Both the position numbers and the translations under genes were made by a program. DNA of 64,000 nt from positions 9,839 to 73,838 of the forward strand of contig JAFGML010000039.1 of NCBI GenBank assembly GCA_016927555.1. Direction: 5' to 3'. Source of the stretch: Thermoplasmatota archaeon (lineage in GTDB: Archaea > Thermoplasmatota > E2 > DHVEG-1). The notes beneath the pieces were generated by a model. It was not told the DNA's origin. It saw nothing but the letters and a program-made list of their open reading frames with translations, and made no database searches. Positions 2,053 to 62,600 of this stretch are shown here, in pieces (position 1 is the first letter of the stretch; the number at the start of each line of letters is the position of its first letter).

Positions 2053-2307
2053 ATGACAAGTGAGCACATCTGGGCTTGGCTTCAATCGAAAGGAAAGTTA
2101 TTCAAGGTTATCTCAGACCCAGAGCGTGGCATCATTGAAGTCATCAACGAGCGAGGGGAGATCCTGGTTCGGAAAACCAACCTCAGTAAACGTCAAGTCG
2201 AAACCGTTGAAAGACATTTTTTACATAGGATAGCGACTCGCTTGAATGGACGGCACATCCCTGCTTCAGGGAAAAATTCTGATCCCTTTGACCCCATGAT
2301 CACCTAG
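2053..2307 (+). CDS. Hypothetical small protein (84 aa)
   Basis: Intact ORF preceded by TATA-like boxes (gtttatatac, agtataaaaag) 15-40 nt upstream. No recognisable motif. Confidence 0.35.
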   Translation: MTSEHIWAWLQSKGKLFKVISDPERGIIEVINERGEILVRKTNLSKRQVETVERHFLHRIATRLNGRHIPASGKNSDPFDPMIT

Positions 2308-2408
2308 CGTGTTGTACCACTACTGTTCTTCGAATAGACGGCTCAAAAAATATTTTCGTTACATTTTCAGCATAAAATTAATATGCTGCAACTCGATGAT
2401 GCCTTTGG

Positions 2409-2798
2409 ATGCAAAAAAAAATCATGGTTGTTGATGATGATCCTGATATTCTCATCACCATACGTGAGCTGTTTGAATCAGAGGGATTTGAGGTGTACAC
2501 CGTCCCCTGCGGCAAAGACTGCTTAGAGGAACTGGAGCACGGATTCAAAGGAGTCATCCTGATGGATGTGATGATGCCGCACATGGATGGATGGACCACG
2601 ATACGACAGATGGTCTCAAGAGGGTTTCACAAGGGAAATGTCATCTCCATGATCTCAGCGAAGGATGAATGTGACTGGCGGTTTGATGACCTGAAACAGT
2701 ACATCAAACACTACATCACGAAACCCTTTGATACCAAGCACCTCGTCAAAACCGTGAAAGGATACTTTGCTCTTTCTCAGGGTACGACATCGTCGTAG
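2409..2798 (+). CDS. Stand-alone response regulator receiver (CheY-like)
   Basis: MVVDDDPDIL...ILMDVMMPHMDGW...YITKPF: the acidic pocket, the phosphoacceptor Asp in an LMDxxMP context and the conserved Lys in xxKPF are all present. No output domain. Confidence 0.85.
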   Translation: MQKKIMVVDDDPDILITIRELFESEGFEVYTVPCGKDCLEELEHGFKGVILMDVMMPHMDGWTTIRQMVSRGFHKGNVISMISAKDECDWRFDDLKQYIKHYITKPFDTKHLVKTVKGYFALSQGTTSS

Positions 2799-2803
2799 TG
2801 TCT

Positions 2804-3238
2804 TTAGAGTGTCTGCCGTTGGTGACGTACCTTCAGAAACGTGTCGACTTCGTCGTGGATGTCACACAGCACACGGGCTTTCTGTACCGCGCCTGTCTGA
2901 GGCTCGTGTGGCGCCATCTGAGATAACTCAGAGATCTGTTGCTGGAGACGTTGCACATCTTCCGTGAGGTGCAGGTGGGTTGTCTCCACCTGATGACGAA
3001 CCGCGTTGAGCTCTTGTCTCAACGTCAGGAGAGACTCTTGGAGTTGTATGAGGTCATCACTCTTCTGAGGTTCAGGGATGTACTCTGAGGTCCACTCCTT
3101 GCTTGAGTCATGCAGCATCTTGAAGTACTCACGTAACGCACTGCGCAGCAGCTCGCTTTTGCTCATGCCTTGTCTGTTGAGTTCAGCGACAATTCTCTCC
3201 TCTTTTGCTGAGAGTTTGAGTGCAATTGTTGTACCCAT
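2804..3238 (-). CDS. Ribbon-helix-helix (CopG/Arc/MetJ-like) DNA-binding protein with C-terminal coiled-coil region
   Basis: N-terminus TIALKLSAKEERIVAELNRQGMSKSELLRSALREYF fits the beta-strand plus two-helix RHH pattern. The remainder is heptad-rich (LQESLLTLRQELNAVRHQVE...). Paralog of 3345..3959. Confidence 0.55.
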   Translation of the reverse strand: MGTTIALKLSAKEERIVAELNRQGMSKSELLRSALREYFKMLHDSSKEWTSEYIPEPQKSDDLIQLQESLLTLRQELNAVRHQVETTHLHLTEDVQRLQQQISELSQMAPHEPQTGAVQKARVLCDIHDEVDTFLKVRHQRQTL

Positions 3239-3344
3239 TGTGCAACCATCCCACGTTCTGTTAATAGTGTTTCCCCATATAAATGTTGAGGATTTTTCAG
3301 TCTCAGGGCTTCGGTGTGCTGCGCTGTCGTCCTCTGTGCGTACG

Positions 3345-3959
3345 TCACATTCGTACCAGTGAGGAGCTTCTTTTTTCTTTCTGATGGTCTACGTGACTCA
3401 CTGATGATGGTTCGATGGTGTGTGGTGGTATCCTGCGTAATTCTTCAACGTAGAACATGATGCGATCAAACTTTTCGTCGATACGCCTGGTTGTGTCTTT
3501 GACCTGCGTGTGATACTCTTGCTGAAGAGATGCGTACGTCTCCTTCCAGTACTGTAGCTCAGTCACATAGCGGAGTTTCCATTCGTCTAATTCTTGCTCT
3601 ACTCGTGCGACTTGGTGGTGCAACCTATCAAGGTAGTCATCGAAAAATGGTGCGTTGAAGGGAGCGGTCTTCTTTGATGTGAGGTATACCTCACTTTCTC
3701 CTGATGGATGTGAATCCTGGTCTACCTGGTTTACCTCTTTAAAAACTTTTCTTTCATCATTTTTTATTTCCTCCTGGGAAAAAAGGTCTACCTGGTTTAC
3801 CTCTTTAAAAACTTTTTTTCTCTTTTTTGTGCTTTTTTCCTGTATGTACATCCAGAGGGCTTCACGCAGAATTTGACTCGATGAGCGCCCTTCCCTTCGT
3901 AACGCATTAACGAGTTTTTCCTCCTGATTTTTCAGCTTTAATGATATGGTTGAACTCAT
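3345..3959 (-). CDS. Ribbon-helix-helix DNA-binding protein paralog with internal repeat and coiled-coil C-terminus
   Basis: N-terminus TISLKLKNQEEKLVNALRREGRSSSQILREALWMY (RHH pattern). Contains the duplicated decapeptide KVFKEVNQVD, encoded by a 66-bp tandem DNA duplication. Confidence 0.55.
   Translation of the reverse strand: MSSTISLKLKNQEEKLVNALRREGRSSSQILREALWMYIQEKSTKKRKKVFKEVNQVDLFSQEEIKNDERKVFKEVNQVDQDSHPSGESEVYLTSKKTAPFNAPFFDDYLDRLHHQVARVEQELDEWKLRYVTELQYWKETYASLQQEYHTQVKDTTRRIDEKFDRIMFYVEELRRIPPHTIEPSSVSHVDHQKEKRSSSLVRM
3719..3816. repeat. Direct tandem repeat: 32-bp unit ggtctacctggtttacctctttaaaaactttt at 3719-3750 and 3785-3816 (period 66 bp) inside the RHH gene
   Basis: Exact 32-nt identity read directly from the sequence. 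Encodes KVFKEVNQVD twice. Contains GGTCTACC, the half-site of the upstream palindromes. Confidence 0.9.
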
Positions 3960-3991
3960 AATTTTTTCCCCTAAAATTGTGTTCTAAAAAA

Positions 3992-4010
3992 GGTAGACCA
4001 GCGGTCTACC
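3992..4010. promoter_or_regulatory. Perfect palindrome GGTAGACC-agc-GGTCTACC (arms extend to aaGGTAGACC/GGTCTACCtt), candidate RHH operator overlapping the core promoter
   Basis: Read directly. Lies about 33 nt upstream of the minus-strand start codon at 3959. On the minus strand it is followed by TTTTTTAGAA (TATA-like) and then the ATG. Confidence 0.5.
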
Positions 4011-4063
4011 TTGTCACTCAATATCAATGTCATTTTCCTCCATATGAAACCGGAAAACACAAA

Positions 4064-4082
4064 GGTAGACCTTCGGTCTACC
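4064..4082. promoter_or_regulatory. Second copy of palindrome GGTAGACC-ttc-GGTCTACC, 72 bp from the first
   Basis: Read directly. Same 8-bp arms with a different 3-nt spacer. Located in the 3960-4220 intergenic space between the RHH gene start and the stop of the upstream peptidase gene. Confidence 0.5.
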
Positions 4083-4220
4083 ATGTTAATATTTAGCATA
4101 TAACGTGGTGATGGTTCCATCATCCCTCGTACGAAGAATCACCACTGCAGTACTTATAGTTTGTTTCCATCACCCAGAACCACACACTACTACGTCAGCA
4201 TCATTTTTTTTTAAAATAAT

Positions 4221-6473
4221 TTATGAGTGCATCATAGCGACAAAAAGTTGTGGAAAGAGATGCTGCAAAATTTGGTACAGTCGTTGAACCAATCGAAGTG
4301 TCGGTACAAATGGCATGCGTACTGGCAGAGGATCAGACCAGTCGCTTTCTTCACGATGCTGGTCACGTGCTTTGACCTTCACTTCGTACCTCCCCCACGT
4401 CGTCCAAGAATGTGTGGTGTTGACCTGCTGACCCGAAAGGTAAGGGCCAAGCCATGGACTAAACGTCCCGTCACCAAAACTCCACTTATAGTACACGAGG
4501 TCTCCCTCCGCATCACTCGTCATACTTGTAAACGTATACGTCTGGCCAACCTCACCTTTTTTTGTGCCTAGTGGTGCCTCTGGGATGTCTGGTGCGGTGT
4601 TCTGCCTAATGAAAAATTCAAGGGTAGGATCACCAAACAGGTTCATTTCATAGTAGCACCATCGCATGCATGGTCCGTTGATACGATAGACATTATCTTC
4701 TTTAGAATCCTGATTTGCTTTTCCTATCGACGTAATGTTCTCTTGAAAGACAGCATCCCAAAATTGACGATGGTAGCGTTGGTTTGGCCCATCGGTGCTC
4801 CCGGGAGTACCCCATCCGTACCGTGCACAGAGGATGCAGGCAAACGCTGCGTGGGTGGTTTTCACGGTGTAGTACTCAGCCATGCTGTCGTCAAGGTCAA
4901 AGGCTCCAGCGTAGCATCCTTGGGAGTAGATGAACGGAAGCATCGTGTTCGTCAACGACTCAATATCATCAGCTCCCATCCTCATGTTGTACGTGGTGCC
5001 TGAATGGCCGAGATGATTCACGTAGTGCACACCACTGTTGATGGTGTTCATGATTTCGCTTTTCGGCCAGCCGGTCTCCCATGGATCACTGAGGTTGAAC
5101 CCAGGCCAGCTATGATCGTACAATCGGCTGATGCTGTAGGTCTCTGCAGGAAATCCAAGGGTGGTGTACTGATGGGCAGAGGACCCGTTAACCAGTTCTT
5201 CCATGGAGTCTCCCCCGAAGGTCACTGGGTAGTTGGGTGGTCCCCACAGGTATTCCCCGACCATGACCACCGGTCCGCTGGAATACCCGCCAGTACTCAT
5301 GTACGCAAGCGTCTTGTGTACAAAATTGTCTGCCTCGAGAGCATCGCCGACAGCCGCTCGTCCCACGTACACCTCAGCAATGAGATCGACATCACCGCCA
5401 CCGTCTCCATCGTACCGCTCACCCCAGTACTCATCGTTATCATAGTTGTAGGTTCCATCGAGACACGCGTAGTACAAATCAGACGGCAGGGTATCTGTAT
5501 CTCCACCGGCTTGCACGTAGAGGAGTGGTGTCGGGAACACATCTGCATCTCCCCCAATAAGCACAGAGGTGATGCCTTTGGTGATGTACTCCTCGGTGAT
5601 TAACTCTCTGATGTCTTCTGGAGTCACAAAGCTAGGGAACCAGGACACGTCTGAGAGTGTTTTTATTTCAGTGGGAATCCCGTGCGCATCATGGGCATCT
5701 TTCAAGGGGATGAAGTGGTCTTTCAGTTCATCGGTGGTGAGAATGAGCAAGTCATAGTGCTCTGCAGACAGCGGTGCATGGGGCATGGATCCATATGTTG
5801 CCAAGGTGTCGCTGGTGTGCACTTTGTTGATGACGTCTTGTTGATCCGTGTCGCTATTCCGAAAGAGGGGATGGACTGCGGTGGTGTGAGTCGTCTGCAC
5901 CGTGACTGTCATCTCGCTGTAATAGAACAGCTCTCCCTCAAGCGGTCGATAAGAGACAGGGAAGACCACGAGGTAGAGAATACCGTAGCCTCGAAAGTGG
6001 TGCACTCCAATGGTGCGAAACAGAGACCCCGGAAATGTCTCAGCTGATGTGTAAATCGATTCGTCGCACAACGTGGTAACCACTGCGGTTGGGAGGGCTG
6101 AGAGAGGTACTGGTTGCTCAACTGGCTCTACCAGTACGTCAGATGCCAGGTGGTGTTGGACCCCTGGTTGCACAGAGATGTCTGTGACGGTTGCCCCTTG
6201 TGGCAGCAAGAAGGAAATCCCATACGCTGGAAGGTTTGGTTCTCCAGGATCGCCTACCCCTGGGGCGCCGGGGAGGGTAATCTGGGTCAACACCTGATCA
6301 TTCATGCTCCGCTGGTGTACCTGCGGTGTTGGAAAAGTGACTGTGTGTGTCAGAACGATGGTGTTCGTAGTCTGCTCACTTGCGCCAAACAATGAGCCTG
6401 TGGTTAGCAATACAATGCTGACAACGAATCCTACCTGCCAATATCTCTTGAGAGGTATACATGTGCTCTTCAT
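4221..6473 (-). CDS. Secreted clan CD cysteine peptidase (gingipain/C25-like caspase fold) with C-terminal PKD domain
   Basis: N-terminal signal/anchor (VGFVVSIVLLTTGSLFGAS). Putative catalytic dyad in order His then Cys: VNHLGHSG ... IYSQGCYAG. C-terminal PKD signature YYKWSFGDGTFSPW. Family assignment comes from motif order only. Confidence 0.55.
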   Translation of the reverse strand: MKSTCIPLKRYWQVGFVVSIVLLTTGSLFGASEQTTNTIVLTHTVTFPTPQVHQRSMNDQVLTQITLPGAPGVGDPGEPNLPAYGISFLLPQGATVTDISVQPGVQHHLASDVLVEPVEQPVPLSALPTAVVTTLCDESIYTSAETFPGSLFRTIGVHHFRGYGILYLVVFPVSYRPLEGELFYYSEMTVTVQTTHTTAVHPLFRNSDTDQQDVINKVHTSDTLATYGSMPHAPLSAEHYDLLILTTDELKDHFIPLKDAHDAHGIPTEIKTLSDVSWFPSFVTPEDIRELITEEYITKGITSVLIGGDADVFPTPLLYVQAGGDTDTLPSDLYYACLDGTYNYDNDEYWGERYDGDGGGDVDLIAEVYVGRAAVGDALEADNFVHKTLAYMSTGGYSSGPVVMVGEYLWGPPNYPVTFGGDSMEELVNGSSAHQYTTLGFPAETYSISRLYDHSWPGFNLSDPWETGWPKSEIMNTINSGVHYVNHLGHSGTTYNMRMGADDIESLTNTMLPFIYSQGCYAGAFDLDDSMAEYYTVKTTHAAFACILCARYGWGTPGSTDGPNQRYHRQFWDAVFQENITSIGKANQDSKEDNVYRINGPCMRWCYYEMNLFGDPTLEFFIRQNTAPDIPEAPLGTKKGEVGQTYTFTSMTSDAEGDLVYYKWSFGDGTFSPWLGPYLSGQQVNTTHSWTTWGRYEVKVKARDQHREESDWSDPLPVRMPFVPTLRLVQRLYQILQHLFPQLFVAMMHS

Positions 6474-22970: not shown

Positions 22971-24023
22971 TTACTCCAAGAGTCCTTTTACCTCGTCGAC
23001 AACATCGACATCGCTCTCAAAGCGTTTCACCTTTTCACGGGCCGCTTCCCTCTGTTTATCCTGAAAGGCGACTCCTTTTCTCCCCAGCAGCGTTCCGCGG
23101 ACCTGAGCGGTTTTTGAGAGCAGGATTTCTTCACCGGAGATGTTGCCACTAATTTGAACATCATCAGTGATATTAATGTTCCCAGTAGCGGTAATACCTC
23201 CATGGATTTTTACTTTGTGTTGGCACAAGACGTTCCCTGTTGCCCGTACAGCACCTATGAGTTCTGAGTGCTTTCCAATGATGACATTTCCCTTGACATC
23301 GTAGTTACCAACTACGGTGCATTGTGAGCCAACGTGGAGGTTTCCCTCTACCTTTGAGGTAATGTTACTGATGATGGAGTTATTGGGTATGAACAGGAAC
23401 GTTTCAGAAATAGGAATGGTTTCCCCCTGGCTGTCTTCGAGTTCTTCAAGGATACGCTCGATTTCTTCACTTCTGCCAAGCTTCAACAACTGCATGAGAT
23501 ATATAAAAATATATATAATGGTGGGGATGGAACTGCGAATATTGATCCAGCCTTTCGCTTCAAACCCTTGGTCGATTTCAACGCTATCACCCACATCCAA
23601 ATCACCTGTGAGAGACAGCTTTCCTTTTATCCGGGCTTTTTCCCCAAGGAAGACATTCCCGCCGCTTTGTATGTTGCCACCAATAGCGGAAAAGACGTCA
23701 ACACGAACGTCATGTGCCGCCTCAAGGGTCCCATCGATAATCACATGTTCTCCAACAAAAATTCGCCCATCCGTCCGTACCCCATAACGTACGATACATC
23801 GGTCGCTGATAATCACATCTCCTGTGGTGATAATCATTTTTTCTTGAAAAGATGTATGATCCGGTACAACCAGCGTTCTTCTATCAAAAGTCATTACTCC
23901 AGCGGAATCCACTGGTGTGTTATAAAACCAACGGCGACACACTACTGAAGAAGAAAAACATTGATATATCCACGATGTATACCTCGATAAACATTCCTTA
24001 AGGACGCTTGACTGCGCGCTCAT
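22971..24023 (-). CDS. Bactofilin-like (polymer-forming beta-helical) protein with two bactofilin-type repeat regions separated by a hydrophobic segment
   Basis: Repetitive short beta-strand pattern ([61 protein letters not shown], then [38 protein letters not shown]...). Central hydrophobic stretch [16 protein letters not shown]. Confidence 0.5.
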
Positions 24024-50680: not shown

Positions 50681-53600
50681 TTAGGAAGCGTGTTTTTTCC
50701 GACGGACAATAATCAGGATGGCAAGCAGGATGCTGATGGTGATCACTGCGAGGATGGTCAGCAGGACGGGGAGGAGAGCGAGGGTGGCTTGGGGTTCTGC
50801 TGTGCTGTAGGCTTGGAGTTGTCCGGTTTCTGCGTTGAAACGGTAGTCCCAGGTGGCGTCCCCATCTACATCGAGGAGGTACCACCCCTCTTCGAGGTTG
50901 ACGGCTGTGGAGAGGTTGTCGGTGGTGTGGTGGAAGGTGTCGTACACGGTGTCATCGTCGTCATCGGTGAGGTAGCCGAGTGCTCCGACGAGGAGAACAT
51001 CGATGAGCATGGTGCGTCCGATGGCTGTGGAGTTGCTGTGGTTGTCAGAGGCGGTGATGGTGATACTGTAGATCCCTGGGGCAGTCCAGCTGTGGGTGAC
51101 CGGTGCTGAGGTGTTGTTCTCATGGAAGTCGGTGATGGTGGTGGGGCTGCCGTCTCCCCAGTGGATGGTGTACTGAAGGTCATCGTCGTCCATGTCACTA
51201 GCGGTCACAAAGAAGGTGTAGAGGGTGTTGGTTGTGCCGTTGTAGGGTCCTTGGATGCGTGGTGCCTGTGGCGGTTGGTTTGCGGTTGTGGTGATGGTTG
51301 CGGTGGTAGTGTCCGTGTCGGTGGCACCATTGTTGTCTTTGACGGTGAGGGTGACGGTGAAGACTCCTGCGGTGAGGTAGCTGTGGGTGATGGTCTTTCC
51401 TGTACCTGTTGTCCCGTCACCGAAGTCCCAGGTGTACAGGACGATGGTCCCGTCATCTGAGCTGTATGAGCCGTTGAAGAGGATGGGTTGTCCGATGATG
51501 CCTTGGTAGGGTTCGCCTGCTGAGGCGTTGGCAGTGGGTGGATCGTTTGCCGGTGGTGGGTTGTTGCCTGGTGGGGCGCCTGAGTCTTGAATGAAGGTGA
51601 CGGTGACGGTTTTATCCTCTGTCATGTTGATGGTGGTTGGGTTGATGTTGTTATTATTTGTACCAATCCATGAGGCAAAGCTCCAGCCAGAATTTGGGAT
51701 GGCGGTGAGGGTGACTAGTGTACCATTTGTGTATGTTATTCGCTCTGGGTTCTTTGTCACTGTACCTGAGCCGGTTTGGGAGATGCTGAGGGTGAATTCA
51801 TTTTCTGTGAAGTTTGCGATAATGGTCATGTCATCGGTGATGGTGATGGTATCGGGGTTTGTGTTGCCGGTGTGGTCTCCTTCCCAGTGGTCGAAGCTCC
51901 ATCCGTTGACTGGTGTTGCAGTGAGTTCGACGACATCGCCGTAGTAGTAGGCGGGTTGGTTTGGGTTTTTGGTGACGATGCCGGTTCCAATAACTGTGAT
52001 ACTGAGTGTGTATTCGTTTTGTGTGAAGTGTGCGGTAACTACTTTGTTGCTGGTCATGGTTATTGTCGTTGGGTTCGTACTGCCAGATACATCTCCGCTC
52101 CAGTGATCAAAGCTCCAGCCTTGGTCAGGGCTGGCCGTGAGTTGTACCGTATCACCATACACATAGGTGGACTGGTCTGGGTTTTTGGCGACGGTCCCGC
52201 TGCCTTGAGCAAGGATGGTAAGTGTGTATTGGTTAATGGTGAATTCTGCGTCAACTACAGAGTTTCCTGTGATAGTGAGTGTTTGTGGGGTGACGGTGCC
52301 ACTGAGGGCTCCACTCCATCCAGTAAAGGTCGATCCAACTGAGGCGTTCGCCCAGAATTTGACTTTCGCGCCGTAGTAGTACGGCCCTGAGTTGTTCTTG
52401 TCAACAGTTCCCAAACCTGTTCCGCTGGTTGTGATGGCTAGTGTGTATGGGCCATTTAATGAGAAGTGTGCCGTGACTGCTTTGTTGCCATTCATGGTAA
52501 TGGTCGTGGGGTTGGCACTGCCAGATAAATCTCCACTCCAGTGATCAAAATGCCAACCGGTCATGGAGGTGGCAGTGAGTTGTACATCTTGTCCATACGT
52601 ATAGGTTGGTTGATTTGGATATTTGGTGATAGTTCCTGCTCCCGCTGGGTCGACGGTGATTCTAATGGTGTATTGGTTTTGGGTGAAGTGTGCGGTGAGT
52701 GCCATGTTTCCGGTGATCGTCAGAGACGACGGGTTGGCAGATCCGCTGAGGTCTCCGCTCCAGTGGTTGAAGCTCCAGCCAGGGTTTTCGTTTGCGGTGA
52801 TTTGTACAATCTGCCCATATGTGTAGGTAGCCTGATTTGGATTCTTTGTAATGGTCCCTGCTCCTGCGGGGTCGACGGGGGTCGTCAGGGTGTACTGGTT
52901 CTGAATGAAGTGTGCGTTGACGATTTTATTGCAATCCATAATGATGGTGGTAGGATTGTTCGTACCAGTGATGTTTCCGCTCCAGTGATCGAAGTGCCAG
53001 CCGGTGGCTCCGTTCGCAGTGAGCGTAACCTCTTGTCCATATAGGTAAGTTGCTTGGTCTGGATCTTTGGTGACAGTGCCTTGTCCATTGGTGTTGATGG
53101 TGAGGGTGTATTGGATAGCTGTGTAGGTTGCGCTGACAGTGATATCATCTGCTGGCATAGTGACAAAGGTGGATGCTAAGCTGGGGTCGTCGAGGTGCTG
53201 GATATCTCCTGTCCAGGTGTAGAAGATGTAGCCTGCAGGCGGGGTGTTCGCGGTAATGTTGATGGTTGTTCCTTGCGTGTACGAGCCACTGCCTGTCCCG
53301 TTGATGACGGTGAGGTGGTAGGTGGGTATTTGAGTGAAGTTTGCAGTGACCGTTATATTGTGGACGATGGTGATTGTGTCGGGGTTGGTGCTGCCGGTGA
53401 GGTCTCCGCTCCAGTGATCAAAGCTCCAGCCGGTTGCAGGAACTGCTGTTAGGGTCACTTCTTGTCCATAGGTGTAGGTTGTATAGTCTGGGTCTTTCAG
53501 GACTGATCCTGATCCTTGTATAGTAATGTCTAGGGTGTATCCCGTGTCTTGTGTGAAATTCGCAGTTACAACCTTGCTTCCGTTCATGCGAATGATTATT

Positions 53601-56600
53601 GGGTTTTGGCTACTGACAACATCTCCTGACCAGTGGTGGAAATGCCATCCGGTTGCTGGTGTTGCTGTGAGTCTGACGAGTTGCCCATAGGTGTAGGTGG
53701 GTTGGTCTGGTGTTTTTGTTACCGTTCCGAATCCAAGGATGTTGATGGTGAGGGTATACTGGTCTTGGGTGAAATGTGCGGTGACCTGCATATTACCATT
53801 AATAATGATAGTATTAGGATTGGTGGTGCCAGTGAGGTCGCCGCTCCAGTGATCAAACGTCCATCCGGCATTTGCGACTGCGGTGAGTTCGACAGTTTGT
53901 CCATAGATGTAGGTAGTTTGATTTGGGTCTTTAGTGATAATTCCTCCTCCAGATGGTTGTATAGAAGTGGAGAGAGTGTAGTGATTTTCTGTGAAGTTCG
54001 CGATAACAACTTTATCACAGGTCATCGTGATGCTGGTGGGGTTGGTGCTGCCTGTGAGGTTGCCACCCCAGTGATTAAATTGCCAGTGGAGAGCAGGGGT
54101 TGCCGTGAGTTGTACTACCTGTCCGTAGGTGTAGGTTGTGTAGTTGGGGTTCTTGGACACTGTTCCTTGTCCTTGTATGGTGATGTTAAGGTAGTACTGT
54201 GTCAGGGTGAATTCTGCGTTGACGTTGGTGTTGCCTGTAATGGTGAGAGTTTGTGGGGTGACTGTGCCGGTGAGTGCGCCGTTCCAGCCAGTGAAGGTCG
54301 ATCCAACTGAGGCGTTTGCCCAGAGTGTGACTTTCGCGCCGTAGTAGTAGGGTCCTGAGTTGTTCTTGTCAACAGTGCCTGAACCAGTACCACTTGTCGT
54401 GATGGTGAGAGTGTAGGGTCCGTTGAGGGTGAAGTGTGCGGTGACTGCTTTGTTGCCGTTGATGGTGATAGTGTTGGGGTTGGTGGTGCCGGTGATGTCT
54501 CCGCTCCAGTGGTCGAAATGCCAGCCGGTGGCCGCATTCGCAGTGAGGGTGACGACTTGCCCGTAGGTATACGTAGCTTGGTTTGGATTTTTTGTAATCG
54601 TCCCTGCTCCTGCGGGATTGACAGTTGTGGTGAGGGTGTATTGGTTTTGTGTGAAGTGTGCGGTGACTGCCATGTTCCCGGTTATCATCAGAGAGGTGGG
54701 ATTGGCTGATCCGCTGAGGTCGCCACTCCAGTGATCAAATTCCCATCCGGGGTCGACGTTCGCGGTGAGTTGAACAATCTGCCCGTACGTGTAGGTAGCC
54801 TGATTTGGATTTTTCGTTATGGTTCCTGCTCCTACCGGGTTGACAGTGGTAGTCAGGGTGTACTGGTTCTGGGTAAAGTGTGCAGTGACTGTTTCATTCC
54901 CATCCATGGTAATTGTCGTGCTCGCTGCAGTTGGATGTGTCACGTCACCTGTCCAGTGGTCAAAACTGTAGCCCGCGAAAGGTGTGGCGCTCAGTGAGAC
55001 TATGGTTCCTTGTAGGTAGGTATGGCTACCGACAGCAGGGGTTGTTGTTCCTCCTTGTACGGGGTCAGCAGCAATGCTCAGGATGTAGTAAGTTGGTGTG
55101 GATCCTACGACTTCATCGACGCCGATGTCTGGTCCTGCTCCTTGTGGCACTGCGTCACCGTCGATATCTTCGGTGATTATCTGGATGATGGTGCCGTTGT
55201 CAATGGCTGGTGAGCCAGCAATCAGATGGTAGTCATGGGTTGAAGGATCAACAAAGAGCGGGTCACCGACGATGTACTCTGTTCCGATGTATCCTTGTCC
55301 GGAGTAGAGGTAGTTGAAAAGATTATGGTCAACTTCCAGGTCAACAGCGTAATTATTGTAGATAGATGGTTCTGTTTTCCCAGGACCATAATAGAAGATG
55401 TTGTTTTTCACCCGTGCAATCTGTGGACCATTGAGGAAGATGTCGTCTTCATTGATGTTGGCAAAGACGTTGTTGTAGATGTATCCGTTTTTATTCATGG
55501 CAACAGAAATTCCACCTGGTAAATCGTAGAGGATGTTGCCGTAGACATAGTTGGTGTCCTTGTAGGCGCATATCCCGGGGAGTCCTAGGTCTCCAGTGCT
55601 GGTATTGGCGGTGAGGATGTTGTACCGTACGGTGATTTCCGAGCCGTGTTGGAGATAGAGGACAGCACCTCCCTCTCCATCGGAGCGCGGGGAGACGCAG
55701 TAGTTGTGCTCAAAGATTCCGGTGGTGAAGTAGGGGACGCCACCGGTGTTTGAGATGAAGCAGAACTTACAGCCGGTGAAGGATCGGTCAAGGATGTTGT
55801 GGTGGATGAGAAAGTCGCTGTGACGTCCCGCAAGCTGGATGCTGTCACCAGGTGCGATTGCGTTGGTTGGTGAGACGAAGAAATCAAGGTTCACTCGATA
55901 GATGTTACAGTAGCCGACTTCAACGTTGTTCGTATGTTGTATGTAGATGCCGTCTTCAGCGATGTCATGGATAGTACAGTTCAATACTTTTATGTCGACG
56001 GAGATGAGATTGGCAAAGGCGTGTATGATGCGAACACCGTTGTAGAAGCCGTCTATTTCACAGTTCTCAAAGAGCAGGTGTTCACAGCGGATGTTGGAGT
56101 ACCAGTGACGAGTGAAGAATAATCCGCCGGTTCCCTTGTTGGTGGAGTTGAGGTGCAGGTCTCGGACCGTGATGTATCGGGAGGCAGATCCACTGATAAT
56201 GCCCTCAGAGTGAGACGAGGTGATGAGTGGTCGGTCCCCGGTTCCGTACGCACCAAAGGTGATGTACTTCTTGTAGTTGAGGACGATGCGGTGTGAGATT
56301 GAGCAGGTGGTGCCTCGTTTTTGCAGGTAGGTGTACCCATCTTGGTATGAGGTGATGTCTGCCCAGGTGTCAAAGGGGTGGGCAAATGACCCATCTTCCT
56401 CTGGGTCGTTGCCATTCTCTGGGTCGATGTAGATGGTTTGTCCTTGGGGTTGCGTGGGGTCGAAGTAGTAGACACCGATGATAATCTGATCATCGTCATT
56501 GGCGTGCAGTGGGTTGATGGTAATCGTGGTCTGTGGGAGGTTGGGTTCTATGATGTCTTCCATGGCGTAGAGTGCTGTCCACTGGTCAAACACAGTGCCT

Positions 56601-59600
56601 GCTGGTGCCGGGTTAGCGGTGATGGTGACGAGGTCACCGTCATAGTAGAACCCACTGCCGGTTCCATCGTTGACGATGAGTTCATATTGATCACCGGTTC
56701 CTTGTGTGTAGGTCGCGGTGACGCTGACATCGTCTGCTGGCATGGTCGCAAAGGTGGATGCTGAGGTGGGGTCGTCGAGGTGTTGGATGTCTCCTGTCCA
56801 GGTGTCGAAAGTATAACCCGCAGGAGGTGTGTTTGCGACAATGGTAACAATGGTTCCTTGAACGTAATTTCCGCTTCCTGAACCACTGTTGACTGTAAGA
56901 AGGTAGGTTGTTGCAGTCTGGTAGGTTGCTGTCACTTGGATGTTTTGAGCAGGCATGGTGACCGTGGTTTCTGCCGCGCTGGGGTCATCCAGGTACTGTA
57001 TGTCTCCGCTCCAGAGAGAAAAGATTTGTCCAGCGGGTGCGGAATCTGCAGCGATGGATACGATTGCTCCTTGTGAGTAGGTCCCGCTGCCTGTCCCGTT
57101 GATAACGGTGAGTTGATACGTGGGTGTGTTCATGAAATGAGCAGTGATGGTTGTATTGCTGGTGATGGTGATTTGCTCTGGGTTTGTAGTTCCACCAAGG
57201 TCACCTGACCAGTGACTGAACGCCCAGCTGGAATCAGGGATGGCCGTGAGCTCAACTACATCACCAGAGTGATAGGTTGGTTGATCAGGGCTAACAATGA
57301 CTGATCCTGCGCCATCAATAGAGATGGAAAGTGTGTATTGTTCTTGAGTGTTCTGCGACAGATTAAGTATCTGGGCATCTGTCAACGAAACATCATATAA
57401 GGAGAATTCATCAAGTACGCCATCTAGGTAATAATTTGCAATTTTTCCTAAGAAGAGGTCGGAGACCTGCTCGATGAAGAGAGCACCGCCTGATCCAGCG
57501 TTGAACATGGGTTGGAGTTGTCCATCAACAAAGATCTGATAGTTGCCTGTTCCCTCGTTGAACCGTGCGGCGATGTGATGCCAACCAGCGTCAAAGGTAC
57601 TTCGGGTAAACGTCCGGTAGTAGGGTGCAGGATCACCGCTTAAGACAGAAATGGTTTCATCACCGATGTAGTTGGAGCAGTCTCCTATCATCATGTTTCC
57701 ATCACGAGCATCTGTGAGGAACCGTACAATGGGTTGGTGATCATTGCTGTTGACAATTGGACCAACATTGGCCCAGAACGCTATGGATTTTACCTCAAAT
57801 TGATTCAGACCACTTGCTTCAATGTAATCGTCGATACCGTCAAATGAAATCGCACCACCACTTACTCCTTCTACCCTGAGTGCATTTCCGTTGATGATGC
57901 CATTGAATCCATTGCCTGATTGATCAATGACTGTGTTACCACTTGCTTCGTTGAAATTATAATACAGAACAACACCACTCGGTGGTGGTGGTAAATCAGT
58001 GTAGGTCGCTGTGACTGCAATGTTAGTCGCAGGCATGGTCACCGTGGTGCTTGCTGCGTTGACATTTGCGACATAGGGTGCACCAGTGCCGGTCCATTGG
58101 TCGAAGATCTGTCCGGCGGGAGGTGCATTGGCGACGATGGAGACAACCGTTCCTTGGGCGTAGCTTCCCGATCCTGTGCCACTGTTGACTGTGAGTACAT
58201 ATGTGATTTGTGTGAAGTTTGCGATAACAACTTTGTTACAGGTCATCGTAATGCTGGTGGGGTTTGCAGTCCCTGAGGTGTTGCCGCCCCAGTGGTTGAA
58301 AATCCAACCCGGGTCTGCTGTTGCGGTGAGTTGGACGACATCGCCGTAGACATACGTTGAATAATCTGGGTTCTTCGTCACCGTCCCACTGCCATGGATG
58401 ACAACGATGAGTGTGTACTGTTGTAGTGTGAAGTGTGCGGTAATGGTCTTGTTGCTGTCCATGATAATTGTGTCTGGGTTGGTGCTACCTGAGAGATCTC
58501 CACTCCAGTGATTAAACTGCCATCCTGGAGCTGCTACTGCTGTGAGTTCCACACTCGTACCACTTGGGTACTGTGGGAGGTCAGGATTAATGAGGACAGA
58601 GCCTTGTCCGTCCGTTGCAATAGATATTGTATAAATGGATGGGGTGCTGACGTCAACTTCATCGACTCCGATTTCAATGGGTCCATTTGAGCCGACGATG
58701 TCCCCGTCGAAATCCATGATGACGCCATCGATTTCGATTTCTGGTATGTAGAGTCCATTGCCGATTGCCGCAGATGTAGTGCTTATATGGAAGTCATTAT
58801 CGATGAACTCTGGGTCCCCTATGAAATCATTGGCGTCGAGGGGGTAGTGAGGTGTTCCTCCTTGTTCGATGCGGTTGGGGAAATCATAGGCGAAGAGGTT
58901 GTGTCCAACGTCACAGGATTCTGGTGTCCGTAGGATAACCGGGAAGGTTCTGCCTGGTGGGTAGTTGAAGATGTTGTTACTGATTACACTGCGTTCGCCT
59001 GGTTGCAGTGGTTGACTGCCGAAGCAGAACAGGCCGTACCACTGTCGGTCGCAGAGCCGCATGTTGAACACGTTGTTTGTACAGATGACTCGCGTGGGGT
59101 ACATGAAGGCGATGCCATCGGGGAAGTTGTCAAAGGTGTTGTAGTACACCTCAAGACCGCCGAACATCTGTCCGACGCCGCCAACAAGGTCATCTGGTTG
59201 GTCATTGTAGAATCTGTTGTAGCGTATGATGATGTTGGAGCCAGGGCTGATGTAGATGACGGCGCAGCCATCGCTGGGTTCTCCTGGTGGGTCGATGTCA
59301 TCGAAGGGTGGGTACATAGTGTTGCGCTCGACGATTCCTGTTGCTCCTTGGTTGACGTTTCCAGCGGTACCGTAGATGAAGCAGAATTTGTTTGCGGTAT
59401 CTCGTCTGTCGAAGGTGTTGTTATGGACGTGGAACCCGTCGCATAGTCCGATCATGTGGACACAGTCACCAGAGGAGTAGTCCTGGTAGGTCCAGGGTGC
59501 CTCCCATTCTTGGTTCACATGGTGGATGTAACAGCCGCCGATTTCGACGTTTTGTACGTCAATCATGAAAATACCGTCGTCATCAGTGTTGTAGATGTCA

Positions 59601-62600
59601 CAATTGAGCACTGATAAATCAGAGTAGCCAGCCGGGTTTTGATCGGATGGAAGCATTCGAATGCCGTTGAATGCTGTGGCTCGCACGTTTCCGTTGTCAT
59701 CAGAGGGGAGGAGCAGTCCATGGATTTCACAGTTTTCGATGTGGATGTGACCTGAGGGTAAGAGTGGATCAGCCATCCAGGTGATTTTGATAATGCCGGT
59801 CATAGTGTCATCTAGTGTGCTGGTGGCAATGAGATGGAGGTTTTTCACCGAGAGGTACTGGATGTGTCCACCGCCGATGAGCTTGTCACCACTGGATGAT
59901 TGGAGAATAGGTCGATCTCCTGTGCCGTACGCATCTAAGGTGACACCATAGCGGTCACTGAGATGCAGGTTCGATGAACCAAGGTCACACGTAGTGCCTC
60001 GTTTTTGGAGGTAGGTGGTGTTGTCTTGGAAGGACACATCGGTCCATGAGTCATAGGGGTGAGCAAGCGACCCGTCTTCTAAGGGATCGTTTTGGTTGGT
60101 CGGGTCGATGTAGACGATGTTTTCATTACCCGTACCACCACTGTATTCATAGGGTCCGATATCCCGTGCATCTCCCTGAGGAACAGGAACTCCATCTAAA
60201 TCGTTGTCTAATGCCTCTGGGTACTCGATTCCTTGGTCGATAGCGTTCAGTGAATCTGCAGTTAAGTGATAATCAGGCACATCGGGATGAAATAGATTTG
60301 CAAAACGACAGTAATCCTCGAAAACCTGTGGATCATCTGAATAGAGTTCAATGTTATTCTGCATCTGTACGCCAGCGCTATTCATCACGAGAAATGTGCC
60401 TTGCGGCATGAGAAAGATATTGTTTCTCAGATACGTTGGTAAATTCCCTGCGCTCATTAAGTAATATCTATCGCCAAACTGCTTGTAGCGGAAGAGGTTG
60501 TTGTTGACTTCTTTCAGGGACGGGCCATTCATAGCCACATAACCAAAGTTGTCAAAGATGTTGTATGAGATAATGGTATGGTCGTTCTCAGAGTTTATCT
60601 GTCCTATCGCTACCTCATCTGTGACTGGGACTTGCTGGCCGTTTGTCAGGGTGACTGTCTGCGGATGTCCTCTGTTAATAGCGGTGTTTCCATAGAATTC
60701 GAATCTCTCGATGTCGCCGTTGACGTAGATGAGATTCGATGAAGCTTCAGGGCATACCGTTGGGAAATACGACGGAGGATACATCGTGTTGTATCTTACG
60801 ATTCCTAGGGTGGCTTTCAATGTCGATGATGCTGTCCCGCCAGATATAAACGTAAATTTATTTCCGGTTCCTCTCTTGTCAAGAGTGTTGTTCTCAACAA
60901 GAAAGTGGTCTGTCCTGAGAATATGAATACAATTTGCCCCAGTTGCAATAACTGGATTGTTCAACCATTCCTGGTTGACATCATGAATGTAGCATCCTCG
61001 AATCTCTACTACGTCCCATAAGACTTCATAATTGGATTTACAGAAGATACCACTATCACTCTGATGATGGATGTCACAATCCTCAATGTATAAATGACTT
61101 GCAGCAGCGTTGGGTTGCGTTGGGTAGACTTCAGCATCAATACCCATCCAACCTCCTATGATCTCACAGTCTCTCACATAAATGTACGACGTCGTACCAG
61201 TACCCGTTGCTGTAATATAGAGGGGGCCATAGCCTGCTCCTGTAGGCATTTCAAGTTTATACCCACTGATTTCTATATGCTGTGAATTCTCAAACCGGAA
61301 CACACAAGAATTATCCACATTCTGAGTCAGATGTGGTCTATCGCCAGTACCGTACGTTGCGATGGTAACATTTACTTTATTGACCACTGAGATGAAGTAT
61401 GAAAGAGCTTCAAAGGTGCCTCGTTTCATGAGGTAGATGGTATTGCTTTGTATCGTTACATCAGTCCACGAGTCATAGGGATGTTGGGGAGATCCGTTTT
61501 CATCAGGATCGTTGACGTTCGTCGGGTCAATATAAATAATACCTGCTGTTCCTAGTTGTTCATACGTAGCTGTGACGATGAGATTTTGTGCAGGCATGGT
61601 CACAAAGGTGTCTGCTGAGCTGGGGTCATCAATGTATTGGGTATCACCGGTCCATTGATTAAACAGATAACCAGATGGTGCTGGGTCTGCAGAAATAAAA
61701 ACAATGGTTCCTGGGAGATACGAGCCATCTCCATTTCCATTTTCTACGGTGAGGTTATAGCTGATTGGTGCTGAGCCGTTGTACTCATCAGGTCCAATAT
61801 CGTAGCCGTATCCTTGAGGAATGGTATCTCCATCGATGTCAAAGAGAATTCCAACGTCAGTTCCGTTATCGATCGCCGGACTTGGCGACTGAATATGAAA
61901 ATCTCCACTAGTTATATCGACAAAATTTGGATTTCCAATTTGACTATTTGTCTCGCCACTCAGGGTTGTATCACTGTGGGTGTTCAGATAGAGGTTATGA
62001 CTTGCGGTAAGTGTCGTGCCACCATTGATATCAATGATGTTATCGCCAGGTTGATTCATGAAGATATTATTTTTTAGTTCCATATTGCTATTTGCAGAGG
62101 TTATGAACCGTTTCCCTGGGGCCGCATTATAGAAAACATTGTTGTAGTAGAATCCGTTACCCCATCCTGAAAACTCAGTGTTATCGTCAACACCACCTTC
62201 AATGGTGTTGCCATAGACATAGTAATACTGGTCATGGTTGTATTGGGGGTGATTCGCATCAGCGGTTTGAATGCAAATGCTTTTGTTGTTCGGCGCAAAA
62301 AATTGGTTGTAGCGGATGATCATATCACCATAGTAATGGCACACTGCAAATAATCCTGCGTTGCCACCTCCCTCAGTCGATGGCCCACTCACTGAATTAT
62401 ATTCAAACACTAACCCTTGAGCAGGGTCAGGGCCTGTGGCTTGTACAATGACGACGAACTTATTGCTGGTATCTGTTTTATCTAAAATATTGTGATGAAT
62501 GTGAAGCCCCTCATAATTATTCACCTGAAGATTATCTCCAGTACAGGAGTACGGATCTCCGCCAGGTAACTGGGGGCAGATGCCGCACCCTCCATCGAGA

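Follow-up and report, generated by a model that had tools for sequence, protein, structure and literature searches.

We describe a small family from uncultured Thermoplasmata archaea in which the gene for a DNA-binding protein carries arrays of the 8-bp box GGTARACC, both upstream of its start codon and inside the part that codes for a linker, so that the protein most likely docks at its own gene. This stretch of coding DNA clearly does two jobs, on strong statistics, with the linker code also selected as a box array whose reader is very likely the encoded protein. The boxes are real, confined to the locus, conserved across the family and constrained at the level of DNA. From these properties we infer that the encoded 204-residue protein, with its ribbon-helix-helix (RHH)-like N-terminus, is the box binder and consequently regulates itself, and we predict, at somewhat better than even chances, that it binds the arrays on its own gene cooperatively and is autoregulatory.

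Locus and gene organization

The locus lies in a 64-kb stretch of archaeal DNA, analysed here as a whole and referred to as the window. The initial annotation had recognized two minus-strand paralogues of 144 and 204 residues, and we confirmed both, with 50% identity between the window open reading frames (ORFs) over the first 38 residues (Table 1). The family of the gene 1 protein comprises only 65 clusters among 1.84 billion representatives, and its basic C-terminal tail ends in RM. The gene 2 protein is 100% identical to the NCBI MAG protein JXA00_05585; in the window lineage its gene is free of boxes, and in the relatives it always adjoins gene 1. Gene 2 has a conserved promoter of its own, CAACATTTATATG or a near-identical variant being kept before it in all loci in which gene 2 was identified. 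Both module proteins evolve fast, at 46% and 39% identity compared with 70–87% for their neighbours.

The C25 peptidase gene upstream is absent from loci L022 and L045, and is outside the module; nothing speaks for the addiction-like or surface-remodelling role that had been proposed. Neither protein matched a toxin family, and the adjacent toxin gene that a type II toxin–antitoxin system would have was not found. Rfam and tRNA scans of the window were empty, PHROGs and PADLOC gave no phage or defence family matches for either protein, and a search of a viral collection returned no viral relatives.

Table 1. Coordinates (window positions) of the genes, boxes and candidate control elements of the locus.
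Feature	Position	Strand	Remarks
Gene 1	3345..3959	minus	204-aa ORF
Gene 1 protein layout			Residues 1-46, RHH-like N-terminus; about 47-100, disordered linker whose code holds the box array; 103-176, long helix (AF2 models, family alignment)
Gene 2	2804..3238	minus	144-aa paralogue; RHH-like N-terminus and helical C-terminus
Conserved promoter of gene 2, CATTTATATG	3276..3285	minus	TATA at about -45..-38
Promoter-like element CTATAAGTAC	4150..4159	minus	Core TATAAGTA at -199..-192; before gene 1 in 24 of 32 loci with upstream sequence shown
Conserved leader segment GATTCTT-N5-GAGGGATGATGG	4117..4140	minus	Downstream of the promoter-like element
Distal upstream box pair GGTAGACC-ttc-GGTCTACC	4064..4082	.	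Boxes at -123 and -112
Proximal upstream box pair GGTAGACC-agc-GGTCTACC	3992..4010	.	Boxes at -51 and -40 from the gene 1 ATG
SD-like GGGG	3968..3971	minus	8 nt before the gene 1 ATG
66-bp tandem repeat, linker-coding region	3719..3842	minus	Two copies
Intragenic box pair 1, GGTAAACC-a-GGTAGACC	3785..3801	minus	nt +159..+175; encodes E-V-N-Q-V-D
Intragenic box pair 2, GGTAAACC-a-GGTAGACC	3719..3735	minus	nt +225..+241; encodes E-V-N-Q-V-D
Near-consensus intragenic box GGTATACC	3683..3690	minus	nt +270; encodes V-Y

A locus-confined box array in the window

The two upstream palindromes that first drew attention to the locus are present as described, 72 bp apart, and the arms of the proximal one extend to 10 bp (3990–4012). 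Six copies of the 8-mer GGTAGACC had been counted, a number that we reproduced: all six occurrences in the 64-kb window fall within 3719–4082, whereas 1.2 are expected and none of 100 shuffles reached six or more. When the box is widened to GGTARACC on either strand, eight of the nine boxes of the window lie inside these 364 bp. The earlier count had overlooked two GGTAAACC boxes, which in minus-strand reading directly adjoin the intragenic GGTAGACC copies (3728–3735 and 3794–3801), and one GGTATACC. Gene 1 has nine boxes in the window: two 5′ pairs with 11-bp spacing, two intragenic pairs and one variant. AT-rich stretches lie between the box pairs.

The 66-bp-period repeat with its exact 32-nt unit was equally borne out, the copies at 3719–3776 and 3785–3842 being 81% identical over 58 nt and identical over the first 32. 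The proposal that a recent duplication had embedded the half-site in the gene does not hold for the boxes, as in-frame arrays occur family-wide and box positions are conserved across the clade; the repeat structure is ancestral, and only the 32-bp exact identity is recent and specific to the window lineage.

Conservation across related loci

We compared about 45 related Thermoplasmata loci, which are kin to one another, so that the counts given here are not independent events. All 38 distinct gene 1 homologues have in-frame boxes, 3–16 each and typically 5–13, roughly between +47 and +353, and the very distant members L046 and L047 have them too. Box positions +158/+167 and +224/+233 are kept throughout clade A. 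Because every family member has an in-frame linker array and positions are conserved across that clade, the intragenic boxes are ancestral and not a by-product of recent duplication. The box itself is unchanged across genomes whose GC content ranges from 49% to 29% and across proteins with only 30–40% identity, and in the flanks of about 40 related loci box numbers are at background only.

In clade A, where 4–6 upstream boxes accompany the intragenic ones in an array next to the gene (spacing 9–12 bp), the relatives have direct GGTTTACC repeats at the homologous upstream positions, about -125/-114 and -53/-42/-32. Since these copies are direct repeats, the conserved unit is one 8-bp GGTARACC box in either orientation and not a hairpin. 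The inverted-repeat operator envisaged at the outset survives in part: the 8-mer truly acts in cis with this gene and behaves as an array of protein-binding boxes would, but its inverted form is specific to the window lineage. Non-coding upstream boxes are spaced 10–11 bp and coding boxes 9 or 12 bp, and the two upstream clusters are 72, 71, 70 or 61 bp apart, on roughly the same helical face.

Other clades vary this arrangement. Clade B has essentially no upstream boxes, and its gene 2 has a distinct box of its own, rGTTAACC, with Val-Asn coded GTT-AAC and not GTA-AAC; in clade C, both genes have GGTAAACC arrays. The array is a tandem higher-order repeat whose length varies even between the close relatives L003 (9 boxes) and L004 (13 boxes). 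Arrays go with the type of DNA-binding domain: members with a KTISLKL strand and an RM-ending tail have 5–13 V[NDY][QPHRL] motifs, and no such motif occurs in eight relatives that share the C-terminal domain but differ at the N-terminus. For P0015, a linker made entirely of VYQ predicts an array of reversed boxes (GGTTTACC). A simple rule by which Ser or Ala at position 6 of the β-strand sets the box type is contradicted by L043, a point against the self-binding reading. Viral matches to GGTAAACC-N(1-4)-GGTAAACC occur in about chance-level counts and the multi-box cases are unrelated: L109 and L165, the latter a phage with a tRNA array, are coding repeats in another frame (GKPG.. motifs), and L081 and L097 are intergenic phage repeats.

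Selection on the DNA of the linker code

Codon usage in the linker follows the box and not the habits of the genes. The central dinucleotide of the box is AA, AG, TT or CT in 416 of 422 cases; Val-Asn/Asp is coded GTA-RAC in 322 of 324 and Val-Tyr GTY-TAC in 26 of 28. The codon that precedes V-[NDY] has G as its third base in 363 of 402 instances (AAG 82 versus AAA 13, CAG 81 versus CAA 0, GAG 70 versus GAA 1), although AAA, GAA and CAA are the preferred codons in the rest of these genes. The residue that follows V-[NDY] is Q, H, R, L or P, all CNN-encoded, in 387 of 402. Among close relatives, AG-to-CT flips are seen at several array positions with almost no single-step intermediates. These codon statistics show selection on the boxes at the DNA level.

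The box-encoded residues 47–100 coincide exactly with the low-confidence, disordered stretch of the AF2 model. A disordered linker would tolerate almost any peptide, and for this reason its DNA would be free to be shaped as binding sites, with the array growing or shrinking in multiples of 3 bp.

An RHH-like N-terminus and a long C-terminal helix

Several lines of evidence converge on an RHH-like fold for the N-termini, while each by itself is sub-threshold or not significant. With the Pfam family RHH_1, the two proteins of the window reach 16.8 and 14.7 bits, short of the cut-off of 20.5. Among 22 N-termini of the family, 20 matched DUF6290, nine RHH_1 and five NikA-like, all of them RHH-type families and all below threshold. 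An alignment to CopG with hhalign gave 75% probability and an E value of 2.6e-5 end-to-end over 40 columns. A sequence profile search of the PDB returned noise only, with no RHH protein at E < 1.

The AF2 models, which are single-chain predictions, give the N-terminus (pLDDT 86) the strand-helix-GxS-helix topology of an RHH protein: residues 1–10 are extended (TISLKL), a helix spans 11–22, an invariant G24-x-S26-x-S28 turn follows and the next helix starts at 27. In Foldseek searches with this N-terminal model, the best matches were the RHH antitoxins ParD (TM 0.63), AtaR and DinJ, with E values above 1; whole-protein searches were uninformative, with MatP among the non-significant matches. 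The C-terminal part is modelled with high confidence as a 74-residue helix, followed by a strongly conserved basic-aromatic tail, KxKKxWxxxMxRM (tail peptide KPKKGWVFQMYRM), of which the window protein has the least hydrophobic version in the family, KEKRSSSLVRM. Of the original description of both proteins as RHH N-termini joined to long coiled coils, an RHH-like N-terminus and a long helix are found in both, but every profile score is sub-threshold.

Candidate promoter and leader elements

A TATA-like box TTTTTTAGAA had been assigned to gene 1 next to the proximal palindrome. It is not conserved: relatives have SD-like motifs near the start (GGGG, GAGG or GGGAGG, 7–14 nt before the ATG) and, about 200 nt upstream, a conserved TATAAGTAC element (4151–4158 in the window), which is present whatever the upstream gene. 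Should TATAAGTAC at -199 prove to be the promoter, every box would be on its downstream side. Each upstream cluster in clade A directly follows an AT-rich, TATA-like stretch. In clade B, repression would need to act from inside the gene, given the near absence of upstream boxes there, which would be unusual. A 50-codon upstream ORF (3971–4123) spans both palindromes and is open in several relatives; we treat it as non-coding because the peptide sequence differs greatly even among near-identical loci and the frame is cut to three codons in L020.

Proposed self-binding and its alternatives

In the reading that we favour, GGTARACC on either strand would be a double-stranded-DNA recognition box for RHH dimers of the 204-residue protein. 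Neighbouring dimers would bind cooperatively, and the long C-terminal helix would tie them into a higher-order complex on the promoter or leader and the gene body, resulting in negative autoregulation by promoter occlusion, by a block to elongation or by both. Against this reading, simple autoregulation would need less than 8–20 sites, a helix of 74 residues and a conserved C-terminal tail. We regard as unlikely, yet worth weighing, an alternative in which the arrays nucleate an RHH/coiled-coil complex at one locus as a structural, centromere-like or anchoring module, the tail reaches a membrane or partner and autoregulation is secondary, as in ParR/parC, omega and SegB. It would account for 8–20 sites restricted to their own locus, for two upstream clusters on one helical face in a parC-type arrangement, for the long, confidently modelled helix with its strongly conserved basic-aromatic tail and for the fast evolution of the module proteins, and the archaeal RHH protein SegB likewise has a pair of sites ahead of its operon besides mostly intragenic ones. 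However, no gene of ParA, ParM or TubZ type, and hence no partner NTPase, was found near the module (1–26 kb of the window, and L036), whose neighbours are housekeeping genes, and a membrane role is guessed from the composition of the tail, whose version in the window protein is the least hydrophobic of the family. A further reading, which seems to us rather improbable, is that of a self-contained ‘centromere inside its own adaptor gene’ on the chromosome, where the protein would assemble on the array in its own ORF and tether this single locus to the membrane or to a protein of division or segregation. If true, wall-less Thermoplasmata would have a means of segregation or anchoring that needs no ParA-type motor, in which site number and tether length would co-evolve, as the array also encodes the linker.

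That the boxes are read by another protein, either the 144-residue paralogue or an unlinked factor, with gene 1 a target and not a self-binder, has in our view a slim chance. Gene 2 always adjoins gene 1 and its RHH strand (TIALKL) is closely related, both genes carry arrays in clade C, and a 7/8 box, GGTTTACg, placed in clade B after the TATA box and ahead of the gene 2 start, suggests cross-talk; yet arrays go with the KTISLKL-type N-terminus of the same protein, and rGTTAACC in gene 2 of clade B argues that each paralogue matches its own array. L047 has an array-bearing gene on a contig of only 844 bp, a length that limits what this locus says about gene 2. It is very unlikely that the repeats matter as peptide (VNQ/VDQ), with slippage and gene conversion making the codons uniform and the upstream boxes being unrelated or copied from coding DNA. 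The variable copy number of the tandem higher-order array in L003 and L004 and the exact 32-bp duplicate in the window, a sign of recent homogenization, would fit, but the flanks of V-[NDY] vary widely while the G and C of the box are always kept, and Val-Tyr has GTY, as an exact reverse complement of the box centre demands, although GTA-TAC would be only one step away. The constancy of the box across GC contents and diverged proteins also speaks against a peptide role, as do the non-coding upstream copies, which hold the 8-mer at helical-turn spacing. We think it just as improbable that the boxes are an RNA-level element, be it a leader hairpin or attenuator (hairpin plus T6, 3982–4012), a terminator of the upstream peptidase gene or pairing between leader and coding boxes. 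The window leader does fold strongly (-50.2 kcal/mol, z = -3.85), TTTTTT follows the proximal palindrome on the coding strand, and clade A leader boxes GGUUUACC are complementary to coding boxes GGUAAACC. Against this, the direct repeats of the relatives cannot form hairpins and show no conserved pairing, which rules out the terminator or hairpin reading, including the earlier suggestion of transcript-end hairpins for the peptidase gene; L022 has boxes without that gene, many clade B genes have forward boxes only and hence no pairing partner, and a flipped box still presents the motif on the other strand, which is how duplex DNA behaves. Least probable of all, with hardly any chance, are replication-origin iterons inside an initiator gene, as in the O gene of lambdoid phages. 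The architecture is the same and AT-rich stretches separate the box pairs, but the locus lies on the chromosome, in synteny with housekeeping genes that is kept in divergent genomes, and is not part of a phage or plasmid replicon; the lack of viral relatives and of PHROG or PADLOC matches points the same way, no helicase-loader or Orc1/Cdc6 gene lies nearby and we know of no RHH protein with an initiator role.

Relation to known systems

The nearest precedents are RHH proteins that read repeats and, for iterons inside a gene, lambda O. Among RHH repressors and centromere binders that read repeats are omega of pSM19035 (7-bp heptads), MetJ (8-bp metboxes), ParR/parC, ParG, Arc and CopG. In such systems a dimer reads a box of about 7–9 bp, boxes abut or lie one helical turn apart as direct or inverted repeats, and cooperative binding at the protein's own promoter leads to autoregulation. 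The family described here resembles them in its small RHH-like protein, predicted to bind, and in short adjacent boxes about one turn apart in either orientation. It differs in that most boxes lie in its own coding sequence and encode the linker, in its disordered linker of about 55 residues, 74-residue helix and conserved tail, and in its chromosomal locus in an archaeal host with no partner NTPase nearby. In the Mnt repressor and MatP, too, an RHH domain is fused to a C-terminal coiled coil, which multimerizes DNA-bound dimers; unlike the present proteins, with which they share no detectable sequence similarity, they have short linkers that are not encoded by their own sites, and MatP sites are spread across a macrodomain.

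The lambdoid O gene has sites for its own protein in mid-gene, translated into a tolerant inter-domain segment, so that the number of sites alters protein length (PMC7466680). Internal boxes in a tolerant linker code and a length that varies with their number are shared features, although binding is a prediction here; in O, however, which does not belong to the RHH proteins, the sites make up the replication origin of a mobile replicon, whereas the present locus is chromosomal with no sign of replication. SegB, the site-specific RHH protein of the archaeal SegAB segregation system, reads many intragenic sites and, in front of its own operon, one site at the start codon and another at about -59 (bioRxiv 10.1101/2025.02.07.637068). 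Its half-sites contain TAGA/TCTA, as does GGTAGACC of the window, but SegB has a ParA-like partner, SegA, and its 13-bp palindromes are scattered over the chromosome and not arrayed in its own gene; it has neither a sequence relationship nor a common domain order with the gene 1 family. The haloarchaeal RHH cell-division regulators CdrL and CdrS, of which CdrL binds essentially one genomic locus, are ruled out from the literature as members of the same family (PMC7439475): CdrL has a C-terminal double zinc ribbon, is restricted to Halobacteria and lies in another genomic context, cdrS-ftsZ2, without an intragenic array.

The dual use of the linker DNA explains odd codon usage and ‘low-complexity’ repeats such as VNQVD that would otherwise be taken as protein features. 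With self-binding, what is known from lambda O and its iterons would also apply to a regulator on an archaeal chromosome. To our knowledge, no transcription factor or chromosome-organizing protein has been characterized in this lineage. The family offers a directly testable, predicted protein–DNA pair with natural specificity variants (GGTAAACC, GGTAGACC and GTTAAC).

A locus-restricted box within and ahead of gene 1

The minus-strand ORFs of 204 aa (gene 1) and 144 aa (gene 2) are 50% identical across their 38 N-terminal residues and are flanked in the window by a receiver-only response regulator and by a C25 peptidase that carries both a propeptide and a PKD domain. Both perfect palindromes that the initial annotation had described upstream of gene 1 are confirmed in the window sequence, as are the 66-bp direct repeat and the clustering of six copies of one 8-mer: the 64-kb window contains six GGTAGACC, all between 3719 and 4082, against an expectation of 1.2, a count not reached in any of 100 shuffles. 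That inventory had overlooked two copies of GGTAAACC and one of GGTATACC; with the box taken as GGTARACC on either strand, eight of the nine copies in the window fall within 364 bp. The sole box outside the locus is at 63774, inside a giant minus-strand ORF of 4421 aa (50681-63946). A 50-codon upstream ORF covers both palindromes, with boxes again in the V-D frame, and is probably no gene: it is open in several relatives, encodes a highly variable peptide and has 3 codons in the related locus L020.

Coordinates of genes and sequence features at the gene pair
Feature	Position in window	Strand	Location
Gene 2 (144 aa)	2804-3238	minus	
Gene 1 (204 aa)	3345-3959	minus	
GGTATACC	3683-3690		inside gene 1
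66-bp direct repeat	3719-3776 and 3785-3842		inside gene 1
GGTAAACC, one base ahead of each intragenic GGTAGACC	3728-3735, 3794-3801	read on minus	inside gene 1
50-codon upstream ORF	3971-4123	minus	upstream of gene 1
TATA-like TTTTTTAGAA	3982-3991		upstream of gene 1
Proximal palindrome GGTAGACC-AGC-GGTCTACC	3992-4010 (arms reach 10 bp at 3990-4012)		upstream of gene 1
Distal palindrome GGTAGACC-TTC-GGTCTACC	4064-4082		upstream of gene 1
CTATAAGTAC then GATTCTT-N5-GAGGGATGATGG	4117-4159	minus	about 160-200 nt upstream of gene 1
Promoter-like AAAAAnTATAAGTAC	4150-4159	minus	upstream of gene 1, about -199
C25/PKD peptidase gene	4221-6473		upstream of gene 1

The conserved unit is a two-gene pair

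The family of the 204-aa protein is very small: a 5.8-billion-protein index yields 5 matches, and a search of 1.84 billion representatives yields 65 clusters at E<=1e-3. A hypothetical protein from a Candidatus Thermoplasmatota MAG has exactly the sequence of the 144-aa protein. Genome and metagenome scans and exact-protein-sequence look-ups gave 47 related loci, including redundant and partial ones, with Thermoplasmata MAGs and freshwater and peat sediments as their sources. The gene order in the window's own clade (clade A) is rSAM, ArgRS, C25, gene 1, gene 2, response regulator and p84, and identity to the window proteins is 70-87% for the neighbours, 46% for gene 1 and 39% for gene 2. The C25/PKD peptidase gene is an insertion outside the module and is missing from loci L022 and L045 (the latter also without gene 1), where ArgRS directly adjoins the ribbon-helix-helix (RHH) gene or genes. 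In the other clades the pair is located among unrelated housekeeping genes; the conserved unit is therefore the pair alone.

An 84-aa protein with no assigned function and the response regulator (window 2053-2798), 76-87% identical across clade A, adjoin the pair in that clade and not in clade B. Elsewhere in the window (22971-24023, minus strand), a 350-aa archaeal protein carries a bactofilin domain (E 2.7e-10), with an Obg-like GTPase and LonB as neighbours.

Box arrays in related loci

Every gene 1 homologue carries an intragenic array of 3-16 boxes (typically 5-13), at roughly +47 to +353 relative to its ATG. The array is present in clade B, where upstream boxes are all but absent, in the AT-rich clade C and, in the same place, in very distant members (10 boxes in L046; 6 in L047, of 143-aa architecture). 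The window's box positions +158/+167 and +224/+233 are kept throughout clade A, and the 66-bp periodicity is therefore ancestral; of the recent duplication proposed initially, only the 32-bp exact identity is recent, through homogenisation. Copy number differs even in near-identical relatives (9 boxes in 198 aa in L003 versus 13 in 221 aa in L004), and the 16 boxes of L043 (1000-1320) include an in-frame stop within the array, which may reflect a pseudogene or an assembly error.

With GGTNNACC positions in all loci counted from the ATG of gene 1, clade A shows two upstream box clusters, at about -125/-114 and -53/-42/-32. The window's boxes (-123/-112 and -51/-40) occupy the same positions, at which clade A relatives have direct repeats of GGTTTACC, so the conserved unit is the box and not the palindrome. 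Because such direct repeats cannot fold into a hairpin, a terminator or hairpin is ruled out as the conserved function, and the alternative that the palindromes are transcript-end hairpins is not borne out. Boxes are spaced by 10 or 11 bp and clusters by 72, 71, 70 or 61 bp, roughly on one helical face, a layout that fits side-by-side protein binding on one face of the duplex. Each clade A cluster comes directly after an AT-rich, TATA-like stretch.

Constraint acts at the DNA level

A single phase, xxG GTn nAC Cxx, is shared by all 336 intragenic boxes, and the central dinucleotide is AA, AG, TT or CT (AR or its complement) in 416 of 422 boxes, although these counts, like the codon counts, come from related sequences and overstate the number of independent events. 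Valine is encoded by GTA before Asn or Asp (AAC/GAC) in 322 of 324 cases and by GTT or GTC before Tyr (TAC) in 26 of 28; reverse complementing the box centres GTA-AAC and GTA-GAC gives exactly GTT-TAC and GTC-TAC, and the one-step product GTA-TAC is rare. The residue preceding V-[NDY] varies (K, Q, E, V, A, L, P, T, R or S) while its codon has a final G in 363 of 402 cases (AAG 82 versus AAA 13, CAG 81 versus CAA 0, GAG 70 versus GAA 1), whereas the same genes favour AAA, GAA and CAA outside the linker. The residue that follows is Q, H, R, L or P, all CNN-encoded, in 387 of 402. Invariant linker residues in the protein alignment are only E53 V54 N55 and V76 Q78 V79, all box-encoded.

At three array positions, different subsets of closely related clade B sequences have AG flipped to CT, and the 1-4-nt spacers drift. 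The box pattern holds in genomes from 49% to 29% GC and across 30-50% protein identity. Since the motif survives reverse complementation and is identical in the non-coding upstream copies, it belongs to the DNA duplex and not to RNA or protein, and selection appears to act on the duplex rather than on the peptide.

The gene 1 protein is probably RHH-like

AF2 models the 204-aa protein with an N-terminal unit in which residues 1-10 are extended, 11-22 form a helix and a further helix starts at residue 27; this unit is followed by a disordered segment, residues 47-100 (pLDDT below 50), which is exactly the box-encoded part, and by a single helix, 103-176 (pLDDT above 95), with a hydrophobic periodicity of 3.5-3.6 residues. 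The C-terminus is a basic tail with the family consensus KxKKxWxxxMxRM. This strongly conserved tail (window 3345-3385) reads KPKKGWVFQMYRM in clades B and C and KEKRSSSLVRM in the window, always ends in RM, and looks like a partner-binding or membrane-binding peptide.

The RHH assignment of the N-termini falls below threshold in profile searches (Pfam RHH_1, 16.8 and 14.7 bits for the two window proteins against a cut-off of 20.5), and by threshold the module belongs to no curated family, but several individually weak lines converge on a likely RHH-like fold. Among 22 family N-termini, 20 match DUF6290, 9 match RHH_1 and 5 match NikA-like, each an RHH-type family and each match sub-threshold, and the N-terminal profile aligns with CopG at 75% probability (hhalign, E 2.6e-5, 40 columns). 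The best PDB matches of the N-terminal model (pLDDT 86) are the RHH antitoxins ParD (TM 0.63, rmsd 2.6 Å), AtaR and DinJ, all with E above 1, and the invariant G24-x-S26-x-S28 turn and alternating TISLKL strand match the RHH signature. Mnt and MatP fuse an RHH domain to a coiled coil, a fusion in which the module resembles both. The arrays are associated with the N-terminal domain: 5-13 V[NDY][QPHRL] motifs are present in family members that have both the KTISLKL strand and the RM tail, and none in eight relatives whose C-terminal domain is the same and whose N-terminus differs.

A candidate autorepressor and its alternatives

The boxes themselves, their confinement to the locus, their conservation throughout the family and the constraint on their DNA are observed. 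On balance we lean towards autorepression, with both the binder and the regulatory outcome being what we infer: RHH dimers of the 204-aa protein would occupy the GGTARACC boxes on their own gene cooperatively, the coiled coil would join DNA-bound dimers, and the complex would repress gene 1 by occluding its promoter or leader, by blocking elongation, or both. The predicted module would work like the repeat-reading RHH proteins omega, MetJ, ParR, ParG, Arc and CopG. For the placement of the sites, the clearest precedent is the lambdoid O gene with ori, where sites lie within the binder's own gene and are translated into a tolerant inter-domain segment (PMC7466680); that the boxes are lambda-O-like origin iterons is a minor alternative.

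The main alternative, though a less likely one, is a structural, centromere-like or anchoring module. In its favour are the many sites, an elaborate architecture of helix plus tail, and the resemblance to SegB of archaea, whose RHH protein has two sites upstream of its own operon and most sites intragenic; against it, no partner NTPase gene is found near the module, which also rules out a partition operon. An RNA structure would agree with the strong fold of the window leader (z = -3.85), yet that fold is owed only to the lineage-specific palindromes, and we give this possibility little weight. Similarly minor are recognition of the boxes by another protein and selection of the repeats at the protein level with homogenisation by concerted evolution.

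The module is neither a toxin-antitoxin pair nor CdrL/CdrS (PMC7439475), and it is not viral. The phage contigs L081 (about 500-900) and L097 (about 2840-3100) have intergenic GGTAAACC/GGTTTACC arrays with ~10-bp spacing between two ORFs, probably unrelated phage repeats that share the 8-mer by chance. A literature search found no description of the gene 1 family or its arrangement, whose main interest is a dual-use coding sequence and a testable protein-box pair.

Gene 2 and promoter-like elements

A separate conserved promoter, CAACATTTATATG, serves gene 2, which is box-free in clade A. In clade B (147 aa; L003 1285-1731, also L007, L029, L031 and L036) it carries about five palindromic rGTTAACC boxes, with Val-Asn encoded as GTT-AAC versus GTA-AAC in the adjacent gene 1, and a 7/8 GGTTTAC box lies between its TATA box and start codon; in clade C, both genes have GGTAAACC arrays. 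Linker-embedded boxes are thus a family trait, with specificity that can differ between paralogues.

Upstream of gene 1, AAAAAnTATAAGTAC occurs in 24 of 32 loci with readable upstream sequence, whatever the upstream gene. TATAAGTAC is kept in most such loci and the GATTCTT...GAGGGATGATGG segment mainly in clade A; together, CTATAAGTAC and GATTCTT-N5-GAGGGATGATGG may represent the true promoter and an old context for ribosome binding. In the window, the TATA-like box noted initially beside the proximal palindrome is suitably spaced for a leaderless transcript, but it is unconserved in relatives. The boxes may either flank a promoter or all lie on its downstream side. Relatives have an SD-like GGGG/GAGG 7-14 nt ahead of the ATG of gene 1. 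In most clade B loci the gene 1 leader (L003 508-535) has a conserved inverted repeat, GGGGAA-N(15-18)-TTCCC. Since upstream GGTARACC boxes are missing from this clade, the repeat may be another kind of operator or a hairpin in the leader.
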